Shown here piece by piece: positions 4,350 to 55,277 of a DNA stretch of 64,000 bases; within the stretch, counting starts at the first letter, position 1; every line of letters starts with the position of its first letter. Under the pieces are notes generated by a model. That model searched no databases. It saw only the letters and a program-made list of their open reading frames with translations, and was not told the DNA's origin. This DNA is from Candidatus Bathyarchaeota archaeon (GTDB lineage Archaea; Thermoproteota; Bathyarchaeia; 40CM-2-53-6; RBG-13-38-9): positions 480,001-544,000 of the forward strand of contig CAWECG010000004.1 in NCBI GenBank assembly GCA_963807605.1. The letters are read 5' to 3'. Position numbers and translations under genes: made by a program.

Positions 4350-5674
<1,325 letters not shown>

Positions 5675-20010: not shown

Positions 20011-20262
20011 TCAACATCCTCCGTACCACTCCTTACTCTTCTCCGATTTGCCGAACCTAGAAACAAGTACTATACTTATCAAACCTCCAATGTATAGTGG
20101 AGCGACAACCAGAGCGAAGTAAAAGCTTCCTTGAAGAAGTACAACAACCAAGAGAATAGAAACGCACCAAACGGCTACGTTACCAAACACTACTGCTCCG
20201 TGACATCCTCCCACGGCTAAAGCCGTGGGTTTTCTTGCGCATTTTCTATAACTCAATTTCAA
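20011..20262 (-). CDS. Small two-TM membrane protein carrying a 16-aa IS-derived in-frame insert
   Basis: Two hydrophobic helices. Residues 6-21 (RKCARKPTALAVGGCH) are the translated 48-bp mini-element. Confidence 0.65.
   Translation of the reverse strand: MKLSYRKCARKPTALAVGGCHGAVVFGNVAVWCVSILLVVVLLQGSFYFALVVAPLYIGGLISIVLVSRFGKSEKSKEWYGGC
20200..20247 (-). mobile_element. 48-bp collapsed family-B element (left-end tip + single hairpin + right-end tip)
   Basis: TTAT|AGAAAATGCGCAAGAAAA-CCCACGGCTTTAGCCGTGGG-AGGATGTCAC. Both tips match the ends of 4350-5674. Confidence 0.95.
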
Positions 20263-20296: not shown

Positions 20297-21641
20297 GTGA
20301 ACTTACCCACCCCTGAAGGGTGTGGGCTTCTCCCCTTGCGGATAGAGAAGTTCCTGCTTCAGCGACGAAACATGCCCACTAATAATAGTGGGCACAGGCT
20401 TCATTTCCACAGGCGTGCATTCGGATGGTTCCCACCCTATTCTTTCCAGTCCTAAACGCCTTATATTGAGTGATGCATTGAAGTCTCTATCAATCTTTAG
20501 TCCACAATGGGGACACTTGTGTATCCTCACTGCAAGAGGTTTAGGAACCTTAGCGCCACATCCGCTGCAATCCTGGCTGGTGTTCTGGGGTGGTACTTGG
20601 ATTCGTAGTTTACAGGCGGTTTCAGCCTTGTACCCTACCATCATTCCAAATCTTCCCCATGAAGCATCAGCCATATTCTTGGCATTAGGGATCTCCTGCA
20701 TCAAATCCTGAATATTCAGATCTTCCATGCAGATTACATCGTGTTTGTCAACGTAGTATCTTGAGAGTTTGTGTAAGAAGTCATTTCTGCAATTTGTTAT
20801 GTCCTCATGGATTGATGCAACCTTGACCTTCTGCTTCATCCTGTTTCTTGATTCCTTCTTCTTTCTTGATAGTCGCCTCTGCTCTCTTTGGAGTCTCTTC
20901 AGTTTTTTGTTGATGTTATGTGGATGAGGGGTCACTCTTCCATTAGAATCGTAGGCATAGTTTACTATGCCACATCTATCCCAACAGTTTTGCTATTGTC
21001 CGCTGGCTCAGTATTTATCGGATGGTCGTATTCAATGGAGGTTATTGCATACCAATTGTTGTTTGCAGAATGTTTTATGATAACCTGTTTGATCTCACCA
21101 TCAATCTCTCTATGCAGTCTGACTGGAATTTCTCCTATCTTGCTGAGGTGGAGTAATCCCATCTGTCGTATCTGCTTGGCACCATGCTTGATTAAGAATC
21201 CAGATTGGTTGTAGATGAAGGCCTTGAACCATCCACGTCCCTTGAATCTTAGCCTCCCAACCTTCCTGCCTTTCTTCTTCATCTGTGAGAGTGCCCTGAG
21301 ATTAGAGTACAGCTGGTAGAGGACGTATTGCCGTGTCTTTGAGTGTAGCTTCTCAAGCTCAGGCTTGTATTTGCATAGGGCAGGGATCATCTCTTGTAGA
21401 AGTATCCTGTCTGGCGTCTTTACACTGCACCTAACTATTCCCAAGAAGTAGTTGTAGAGCCACCGGCAAAGCTCAAGGATTGCAGACATCTCCTCCTCTT
21501 GTTCCCTTGTTGGGTAAAGCCTATAGCGCACTGAAGACTGCATTGTACTCACTATATTTTTTGTAAACTCCGCTTATAATGCTGATACCAGTTCGCTTTC
21601 ATCCCACCCCTAAAGGGTGGGGGATTTCCCGCTCACCTTTT
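20297..21641 (-). mobile_element. TnpB-only IS200/IS605 element, family C copy 1
   Basis: After TTAA (21642-21645, minus). Right end GAAG-hairpin-TAAGTTCAC. Confidence 0.93.
20303..21552 (-). pseudogene. tnpB: tnpB (family C) with 1-bp deletion in the RuvC-I motif near 20972
   Basis: GATGTGGCATAG here versus GATGTTGGCATAG in the two intact copies. Confidence 0.9.
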
Positions 21642-21783: not shown

Positions 21784-22191
21784 GTGTTCAAACTTGACAT
21801 TGAAGAGGCTCTGAAAACTGCATCTGCCACAATACTCATCCTAGTCTTCGCCGCATCATTCCACCAGAACGCCCCACAAGCACCTAGACCCACCCCTGAT
21901 AAGTCCATGAGGTTGATCATCTTTCCTGCTAGGCCAATCCACGTAGCCATTCGGAGAAATACGACGATTCTTGATTTTGATTCTAACTACAACATAATCC
22001 AAAACAGACACACCACAATCGAATTAGCACTTAACGAGAAGAGCTCCGCTCTTTTGAGAGTATCAAAACCGGCGGACTTAATCTGGGGCAGGGATCTGGC
22101 AATTAGGCTACAGAATGGGCGAGCTGACTTGCTCTTGGTAGCGAGGAGGCAAGAATGCGCAGTAGACCTGGGGGGAGAAACTATCAGTTGA
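21784..22191 (+). CDS. Hypothetical protein with N-terminal hydrophobic segment
   Basis: 135-aa ORF whose stop overlaps the next start (TTGA). No family recognised. Confidence 0.5.
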   Translation: MFKLDIEEALKTASATILILVFAASFHQNAPQAPRPTPDKSMRLIIFPARPIHVAIRRNTTILDFDSNYNIIQNRHTTIELALNEKSSALLRVSKPADLIWGRDLAIRLQNGRADLLLVARRQECAVDLGGETIS

Positions 22192-22754
22192 GTCACGAAG
22201 ACACCATAAGGAAGCTAGCGGAGATGAAGGCGTACGTTGAGAAAAAAGTCTCAGAGCTAAACCAAGAGAGTGCTGCGCTGAGTTCCTTCTTGGAGGTAAT
22301 TGATGATCTACTGGCCGAAAGAAGTTTTAGAAGAATAGACATTTCCAAAGAGCACTTAGAGCCTGTAACCCCTCAACATCTCAATCGAGAAAAGGCACCT
22401 ACTCACGAGACCACGATTCTCGCAGCAGAAGGAGCTCAACTCGGAGAAATACATATTGAAGATGACAATGTAACCCTGATTCCGCGTGAGGATATCAAGT
22501 TCGACGTGAACTCTCCACCCCTCCGAGCATTCCTGCTCGCCAGAGTCCTGGAGCCCATGAGAGTCAAAGATGCCGAGTTAGTTAAAGAAGGAAGGCTGCA
22601 GCAAGGAAAGGCACTCACCTATGCAATTGACCAAGACAAAGGAATTCTGCGATCATTAGTCGTCCATAATTTTGGTGATGAAAAAAGACTTTCAGAACTC
22701 AGAAATGCCTTTCGCTGGACATTCAGGAGAATGTATGAGAAAAGCGCTAAATAA
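22188..22754 (+). CDS. Conserved-looking archaeal hypothetical protein (N-terminal coiled coil)
   Basis: Coiled coil, then FDVNSPPL..FL..LRNAFRWTFRRMYEK. TTG start after GGGGGGAG. Confidence 0.75.
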   Translation: MSHEDTIRKLAEMKAYVEKKVSELNQESAALSSFLEVIDDLLAERSFRRIDISKEHLEPVTPQHLNREKAPTHETTILAAEGAQLGEIHIEDDNVTLIPREDIKFDVNSPPLRAFLLARVLEPMRVKDAELVKEGRLQQGKALTYAIDQDKGILRSLVVHNFGDEKRLSELRNAFRWTFRRMYEKSAK

Positions 22755-44451: not shown

Positions 44452-45144
44452 TTGATAATACTCAAGGATGTACCCTTGGCATTCAGCATTGACGACGCAC
44501 TGGCTGTGGGAGGCATGAGCCGCGTAGCTGACAAAATACGCAACCTGAGCGTCCTCCTAGAAGAATGCAAGAGTCTTGTCCGACCGGCTGCGGCCTACAC
44601 CTACGTGAAGATCAAGGAAATATCTGACGATGGAATCCTCGTAGAAGACGGCAAAATGCTTAGCAGCAGGAAACTCGCCGAGCAACTCAAATGCGCAACT
44701 GAAATTGCACCCTTCATAACTACGATTGGCCCACACTTGGAGCGAAGAGTAACTTCGATTGCACAAAGCCGGCTTCTCGATTCATGGGTGCTCGACAATT
44801 TAGGAACCTATGCCCTCCGTCTGGTGAACAGACATCTTGAAGAGAAAATCGCCGCTGAGAAAAAATGGAAGATATCAATATTCAATCCTGGATCCACTCC
44901 ATCATGGGAACTTGAACAACAAGAAGTCCTCTTCAGCATATTCCCCAAGGATAAGATTAGAGATGCGATTGGAGTAATCTTGAATGATAAATTCGTTATG
45001 ATGCCTAGGAAATCGATCTCAGGAATCATGGGCCAGACGATACAGGCGTATCATAATTGTTACGAATGCCCGAAGTTATGTGAATACAGACAGAAGCCTT
45101 ACATTGAACTAGCAAGAAAGCTCACCCCTTCAGGGGTGGGATGA
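44452..45144 (+). CDS. B12-dependent methionine synthase reactivation-domain-like protein; last 13 aa IS-derived
   Basis: TIGPHLE, FNPG, IGVIL..MMPRKSISG, CYECPKLCEYR. Confidence 0.85.
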   Translation: MIILKDVPLAFSIDDALAVGGMSRVADKIRNLSVLLEECKSLVRPAAAYTYVKIKEISDDGILVEDGKMLSSRKLAEQLKCATEIAPFITTIGPHLERRVTSIAQSRLLDSWVLDNLGTYALRLVNRHLEEKIAAEKKWKISIFNPGSTPSWELEQQEVLFSIFPKDKIRDAIGVILNDKFVMMPRKSISGIMGQTIQAYHNCYECPKLCEYRQKPYIELARKLTPSGVG

Positions 45145-54924: not shown

Positions 54925-55277
54925 CGCTCTGGTATTCTCCGGCACGGATCTCCATATTACCTGATTCGCCTAGGATTTGAGCAAGTTCATATTTTCTCCG
55001 CATCCTTTTGGCAGCCCATCCTCCCCCTCGTATTGACATATCGTTTCCAGCCAGAATCCTGAAGCAGCCAGTCTCGGCGCTACAATCTGAGCAGATTTCA
55101 GGTGGAGATTAACCTGTTTCTTTGGCTGCTTTGTTAACCTTCGATAGTATTCTCAGATTCCGGGATGAATCGAATAGAGTCCCATCTCATCGTTGAACTT
55201 AATTAGAGAGGATTTGAGCAAGAAACCCCACATGCTTTAGCGGTGGGATGAATTGCGTTCCAGAGCGAGACGCCAGA

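Follow-up and report, generated by a model that had tools for sequence, protein, structure and literature searches.

A 48-nt, apparently core-deleted remnant of a TnpB element within the reading frame of a small membrane-protein gene in a Bathyarchaeia genome

Results

Anatomy of the insert

The window analysed here, a stretch of 64,000 nt (C4:480001-544000) from a 2.65 Mb genome in five contigs whose nearest named relatives are Bathyarchaeia MAGs, carries an 83-aa ORF with a TTG start that reads MKLSY-RKCARKPTALAVGGCH-GAVVFGN. Within this ORF lies a 48-nt insert that consists of 18 nt of left tip, one 20-nt hairpin and 10 nt of right tip of a TnpB element (Table 1). Read along the minus strand (20251-20200), TTAT is followed by AGAAAATGCGCAAGAAAA, CCCACGGCTTTAGCCGTGGG and AGGATGTCAC, and then by the flank GGAGCAGTAGTG. 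The left 18 nt together with the hairpin match the left end of a full family-B copy in the same window (5637-5674) at 100%, and the right tip is identical to the right tip of that copy and to all other right tips; the right hairpin of this copy is one base off the hairpin of the remnant. The ORF of the full copy matches OrfB_IS605 and Cas12f1-like_TNB in Pfam. The initial annotation of this DNA had described a left and a right tip joined through one shared hairpin after TTAT, a description borne out by the exact match to the full family-B ends. For the 27-nt core of the hairpin region, 0.00 chance occurrences are expected in the window, and the hairpin is predicted to fold as single-stranded DNA with -10.3 kcal/mol (z = -3.4). 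The four nucleotides 5' of the single hairpin, read directly, are AAAA, the guide of left ends, and not the GAAG found in right ends, as the annotation had likewise stated.

Table 1. Features at and around the remnant (window coordinates)
Feature	Position	Strand	Remarks
TTAT, target/TAM of family B	20248..20251	-	directly 5' of the remnant
Left-end tip AGAAAATGCGCAAGAAAA, 18 nt, last 4 = DNA guide AAAA	20230..20247	-	identical to window 5657-5674
Single hairpin, 20 nt, 8-bp stem, TTTA loop	20210..20229	-	common to left and right ends
Right-end tip AGGATGTCAC, 10 nt, ends in cleavage motif TCAC	20200..20209	-	identical to window 4350-4359
Small two-helix membrane-protein gene, 83 aa; remnant between codons 5 and 6	20011..20262	-	homologues, dN/dS
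Full family-A TnpB element, tnpB frameshifted, after TTAA	20297..21641	-	lies 49 nt upstream of the TTAT next to the remnant; missing from L011
Reference full family-B element, 1325 bp	4350..5674	-	source of the tip sequences

Both tnpB and the omegaRNA region are absent from the 48 nt, which therefore do not form a working IS200/IS605 element. The insert has a near-terminal palindrome, lacks terminal inverted repeats and a target duplication, and is too short to code, which are the hallmarks of terminal-only PATEs. Sequence comparison supports its classification as a core-deleted, terminal-only derivative of the 1.3-kb family-B IS200/IS605-type TnpB element, that is, a PATE-type “solo hairpin”.

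The host gene and its insert-free relatives

The remnant occupies exactly 16 codons of the ORF, stop-free and on a codon boundary, as originally claimed. Among its three sense frames, the 48-mer has a single open one, namely the one that reads the TAT of the target as a codon, so that the prior probability of an in-frame, stop-free outcome was 1 in 3; because the remnant is 48 nt long and the TAT is read as a codon here, this one open frame is the frame in use. Orthologues lacking the 16 residues, for which the annotation had proposed a search, do exist (P0002, P0003 and P0005), which disposes of one ground on which that reading was to be refuted. P0002, from a JGI metagenome, has 67 aa, is 87% identical to the product of the ORF and lacks precisely the 16 residues, and an exhaustive profile-free search yielded two further relatives, P0003 (67 aa, 54% identical) and P0005 (64 aa, 43% identical). 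All these insert-free homologues (64-67 aa) retain 4-6 residues ahead of the first hydrophobic helix, and the KSKEWYEG tail is conserved. Over the 62 codons shared with P0002, synonymous and non-synonymous changes number 10 each (dN/dS 0.22), and 13 of the 24 differences fall at third codon positions. Given the insert-free homologues, the conserved tail and the dN/dS value, the ORF is, on this comparative evidence, a real gene, which now encodes 16 additional residues immediately ahead of its first membrane helix. A GTG start 3' of the remnant, which would place the 48-mer in the leader, was considered and is unlikely in view of the residues that the homologues keep before the helix.

The 83-aa protein has no family in Pfam. 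Without the insert (window 20011-20199), it forms with P0002, P0003 and P0005 an uncharacterised family that has two hydrophobic helices and the conserved KSKEWYEG C-terminus and likewise lacks a Pfam family. Separately, six stretches of a 2544-aa protein (P0004) match the small-protein query.

The metagenome contig that carries P0002 (L011), derived from a relative that is ~88-93% identical, aligns with the window on both sides of the remnant and presents an empty site, …GAGTTAT|GAAGCAGTGGTG…, without the 48-mer and without a target duplication. Comparison of TTAT|GAAGCA in this contig with TTAT[48 nt]GGAGCA in the window places the insertion 3' of the TAM, with no target-site duplication, and the clean empty site thus substantiates the earlier claim of insertion after TTAT. 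The family-A element next to the gene is also missing from L011. Synteny between the two ends just past the stop of the small gene (window 20004 / L011:1038), beyond which L011 continues with a BcrAD_BadFG gene and this genome with DUF116. At the syntenic loci of relatives from other genera (L006-L010), DUF116 directly adjoins a 199-aa gene (window 22155-22754), and because the small gene is absent there, these loci are uninformative as empty or full sites.

In L011 (780-800), the insertion point of the family-A element (TTAA|ATATC) falls within TTAAATAT, ~30 nt upstream of the TTG. This sequence is probably the TATA box of the small gene, and it is split in our genome by the family-A element (TTAA|ATAT), which makes normal expression of the gene doubtful; expression may now depend on read-through from the family-A element.

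Remnants and full elements across the genome

Six family-B remnants are present genome-wide (C3:2179, C3:10003, C3:13989, C4:500200, which is the one in the window, C4:560463 and C4:723194), all of them after TTAT and with unrelated flanks; three of the six are 100% identical to each other. The eight full family-B copies measure 1324-1325 bp, share 90-96% mutual identity and are preceded by TTAT in seven cases, with an intact 401-aa frame in four; in one of the eight (C4:586420-587743), the left and right hairpins are identical 20-mers. Family A is represented by nine full copies and three remnants (C1:598463, C3:1145595 and C4:611770), each of 48 nt (18 + 21 + 9 nt) and each after TTAA. For family D, which targets TTAC and has unlike hairpins at its two ends (CCCACCCCTTCAGGGGTGGG vs CCCCTGTCTTTAGGCAGGGG), we found ~12 full copies (12 left and 12-14 right ends) and not a single remnant. 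Thus, the families with like or near-identical end hairpins, A and B, show 9 remnants against 17 full copies, compared to 0 against 12 for family D (Fisher p = 0.036, a value that is indicative only, the counts being small and the copies related).

The family-A remnants all differ in the 5' hairpin arm, the three variants being CCCCCACCC, CCCACACCC and CCTACACCC, each of which recurs in a different full-length left end, and in the family-B remnant at C3:10003 the 3' arm is GCCATGGG, which otherwise occurs only in right ends. No reciprocal junction (right-left flank plus left-right flank) was found in this genome.

With respect to coding context, six of the nine remnants are intergenic, and the one in the window is alone in lying in frame within a likely gene. 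The remnant at C3:10003 alters the C-terminus of a 135-aa membrane ORF, which it enters 6 codons before the end and in which its own frame stops after 10 codons, and the family-A remnant at C3:1145595 cuts, in antisense, an open frame of 282 aa (ORF of 267 aa) for which Pfam has no family. The enrichment for in-frame coding positions that was to be looked for according to the initial annotation is accordingly absent (1/9 in frame).

Several further features of these copies were observed. At C3:10003-10050 (L114:1504-1551), ATTCAT replaces GAAAA 5' of the hairpin and is the exact complement of the ATGAAT found 3' of the hairpin in full left ends, so that this variant looks like a templated “quasi-palindrome correction” of an extended left-end stem. 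Four of the nine remnants (C4:500200, C4:560463, C3:13989 and C1:598463) lie 6-110 nt from the end of another IS family, with ~5% expected for each, and two family-B remnants follow a family-A right end of like orientation at distances of 49 and 58 nt; that these two represent one duplicated block was rejected, the spacers being unrelated. It seems that elements insert preferentially near one another, a behaviour also reported for Haloquadratum. Every remnant on C3 and C4, as well as nearly all full A, B and D copies on C4, is on the minus strand (C4:480-725 kb), a strong strand and regional bias of the kind that insertion into the lagging-strand template should produce.

Copies in other assemblies

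A 240-nt Logan contig from a peat metagenome (X1 record 3) contains the 48-mer with its TTAT at 0 differences. On one side, this contig has the left flank of the C3:13989 remnant, and on the other side, TTTAC followed by unique sequence, without the family-D element that adjoins this remnant in our genome. These flanks indicate that the C3:13989 remnant is common to another population and older than the family-D insertion. The whole 48-mer with TTAT also occurs between other flanks (X3 record 12), and the 48-mer alone after yet a different flank (X1 record 4). These contigs argue against an assembly artefact and are neutral between deletion and mobility. The junction pattern had 0 matches in metagenome_contigs, genome_contigs and the genomes of 40 relatives; the right tip alone was found at 18 metagenome loci, all of them ordinary right ends of full elements. 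Among public sequencing runs, none holds the window stretch (shares 0.05-0.07), and metagenome contigs cover only its repeat parts.

DNA guides, TnpA and TnpB

Four co-resident TnpB families have the targets TTAT, TTAA, TTAG and TTAC. The left-end motifs pair with guides (window 5657-5660, 21621-21624, 55223-55226 and 45117-45120) as TTAT/AAAA, TTAA/AAAT, TTAG/AAAC and TTAC/AAAG, and the right-end motifs as TCAC/GAAG and TCAA/GAAT, such that in all four families the guide and the cleavage motif covary at their fourth bases, which pair with each other under the IS608-type rule. The remnant has one hairpin preceded only by AAAA, which leaves TCAC without its guide, and therefore cleavage at its right end should fail. 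With only the left-type guide, the remnant is probably not excisable by TnpA, that is, it would be “locked”.

Genes for the Y1 transposase TnpA are present at four places in the genome (among them C5:72411-72749 and C4:558457-558810), in two of them with open frames, and have hairpins of their own (CCCTGAGCTTTAGCTCAGGG) unlike those of family B. One such gene (C4:558331-558810, L013) has its own right-end hairpin, ends in …TAATTTAG, and abuts a family-B copy with an altered first base and TAM (TTTAG|GGAAAATG). This composite, IS605-like arrangement may be the source of mobilisation in trans.

In the system examined by Meers et al. (2023), excision requires both ends together with a matched TAM and guide, and TnpB cuts the scarless donor joint, in which the TAM is directly followed by the flank (PMC10055086). 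For the TTAT joint at the site of the remnant, the corresponding TnpB guide would be GGAGCAGTAGTGTTTG. Because the TAM and this target are now 48 nt apart, the remnant is probably not recognised by the TnpB guide RNA and would hence escape re-cutting. Deletion of the core also removes the omegaRNA of the locus itself, so that such an escape matters only while other chromosome copies carry the element.

Origin of the remnant

We consider it probable, from the sequence of the tips and hairpins, that the remnant arose by slippage or recombination between the end hairpins of an inserted full family-B element. In this scenario, the small membrane-protein gene would have been interrupted by a full element that entered it 3' of TTAT, between codons 5 and 6. 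Slippage or recombination between the subterminal hairpins of this element, identical 20-mers that form direct repeats at a distance of 1277 bp, would subsequently have deleted tnpB, the omegaRNA region and one copy of the hairpin, so that TTAT and the old flank would now enclose the two tips joined by the other hairpin. The proposal that hairpin recombination deleted tnpB was already part of the initial annotation and gains backing from a control within the genome itself, where families A and B, with like hairpins, leave remnants and family D, with unlike hairpins, leaves none. Together with the arm variants and the lack of a reciprocal junction, this contrast favours repeated homology-dependent deletion over a single spreading mini-element. 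The two-step history is nonetheless inferred, since no genome or contig was found in which this site holds a full-length family-B copy, and the companion claim, that deletion “reopened” the gene, presupposes just such a full-length intermediate.

A different history, named in the initial annotation as a refuting outcome and regarded by us as unlikely, starts from one core deletion in each family that gave rise to a single-hairpin 48-mer; moved since then in trans by a Y1 TnpA, the 48-mer would have inserted directly into the gene after TTAT. Such a mobile mini-element would account for six copies at unrelated sites that all follow the TAM and for the further copies with other flanks in metagenomes, and two of the TnpA genes in the genome do have open frames. 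It would also explain the intact gene by one event, whereas insertion of a full element would have knocked out a conserved gene first. The three identical family-B remnants, set against 90-96% identity among full copies, would equally fit recent copying of a mobile mini-element, with the caveat that the tips are more conserved than the element interiors. The possibility was raised by Dyall-Smith et al. for six strain-specific 52-bp copies in Haloquadratum (PMC3119063). However, the remnant has the left-type guide only, leaving TCAC unguided under the covariation seen in all four families, and the experimentally tested system excises only when both ends are intact (PMC10055086). The variants of the family-A remnant hairpins, which match different full-length parents, point to separate origins, the copy numbers of the 48-mers (6 and 3) are low and do not exceed those of the full elements, and the junction pattern went unmatched in the two large contig collections.

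Deletion in place might, alternatively, have been selected as a host escape from TnpB-enforced retention, with the in-frame 16-residue insert kept because it restored or improved the gene, a reading that we hold to be quite improbable. Consistent with it, the 48 nt part the TAM from the former guide target, which must be adjacent for TnpB to cut (PMC10055086), the gene is conserved with its frame intact, and the insert adds Arg and Lys N-terminal of helix 1, which probably suits the topology, the C-terminal tail being basic as well. Against it stand the single in-frame case among nine remnants, the loss of the guide RNA encoded by the locus, which confines any benefit to cells with the element on other chromosome copies, and the apparent TATA box split by the family-A element, as a result of which the gene may not be normally expressed. 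There is little to suggest that the in-frame insert has been under selection, and the best reading of its being in frame is a tolerated accident with a prior of 1 in 3, not an adaptation.

That a full element merely collapsed through its 20-nt repeat during assembly is barely credible. Nine such junctions from two families occur in this five-contig assembly, in which over 40 nearly identical insertion sequences are resolved, a repeat of 20 nt is shorter than the usual assembly words, and in the independent peat contig the sister remnant is bounded by unique sequence on either side.

Discussion

The mechanics inferred from the resident families resemble IS200/IS605 transposition of the IS608/ISDra2 type, which Barabas in 2008 and He in 2015 are said to have described. 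As in those elements, the TAM lies 5' of the left end, there is no duplication, the hairpins are ~18 and ~10 nt from the cleavage sites, the 4-nt guides at the foot of the hairpins covary with TAM and TEM, and TnpB would target the joint of TAM and flank. Unlike them, the remnant is probably a dead derivative, without tnpB or omegaRNA and with only one hairpin and guide. With the REP/REPIN sequences moved by RAYT, also a Y1 transposase, the 48-mer shares a short, GC-rich single hairpin, an IS200/IS605 derivation and dispersal in the genome, but it lacks the GTAG/CGTC tag, forms no inverted doublet, has a low copy number and bears the tips of a resident TnpB element. The comparison with solo LTRs is apt in that the interior would have been lost by recombination between two terminal direct repeats, with one repeat left at the site; in this case, however, the repeats are 20 nt instead of hundreds, the unique outer tips are kept, slippage or short-homology deletion is the likely route, and the element belongs to another class.

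The closest precedent comes from Haloquadratum walsbyi, where Dyall-Smith et al. (2011) described the reduction of ISHwa23, an IS1341-type element encoding TnpB, from 1500 bp to a 52-bp terminal-only PATE, by deletion via the near-terminal palindrome, which forms a 19-bp direct repeat, and of HqIRS46 likewise via a 22-bp repeat (PMC3119063). Four cases of a full element in one strain and its deleted form in the other were documented, and the authors proposed repeat-mediated deletion as a defence while leaving open the mobility of the 52-mer (PMC3119063). The parallels with our remnants are extensive: in both cases, the element is archaeal and TnpB-only, its direct repeats are formed by a near-terminal palindrome of ~20 bp, the product (~50 bp) combines the two tips with a single palindrome, the target is not duplicated, and the genome has several copies. 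The differences are that the host here belongs to Bathyarchaeia, that the product is 48 bp and not 52 bp, and that a small gene contains one of the copies in frame. The evidence also differs in kind, as Haloquadratum offers a sister strain with the full element at the site and our analysis an empty site in L011 and, as control, a family with unlike hairpins. The remnant is thus the Haloquadratum phenomenon in another archaeal class, and the idea of deletion as defence has already been published (PMC3119063).

In the literature searched, we found no paper that ties TnpB homing to repeat-mediated core deletion. Viewed jointly, our observations could be read to mean that hairpin-to-hairpin core deletion is the main route by which this probably polyploid archaeon removes TnpB elements, that unlike hairpins, as in family D, are an evolved counter-move, and that remnants occasionally donate 16-residue inserts; we advance this composite reading tentatively, as a possibility that we ourselves consider doubtful. 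If true, core deletion would owe this role to being the only loss that TnpB homing cannot reverse: scarless excision would be re-cut and repaired from a sister copy, whereas a 48-nt remnant, which parts TAM and target and is devoid of the right guide, would be permanent.

The present findings extend a little-cited haloarchaeal observation of 2011 to Bathyarchaeia and add an internal control that is new compared with the earlier work, namely that remnants occur for the families whose end hairpins are alike and not for the one whose hairpins differ. For genome annotation, such 48-mers are easily overlooked, yet they can add, truncate or cut coding sequence. In light of TnpB homing (2021-2023), the remnants may be seen as a form of element loss that would lie beyond repair by the guide-RNA nuclease, which bears on the balance of gain and loss between hosts and TnpB elements and on why some elements retain dissimilar end hairpins.
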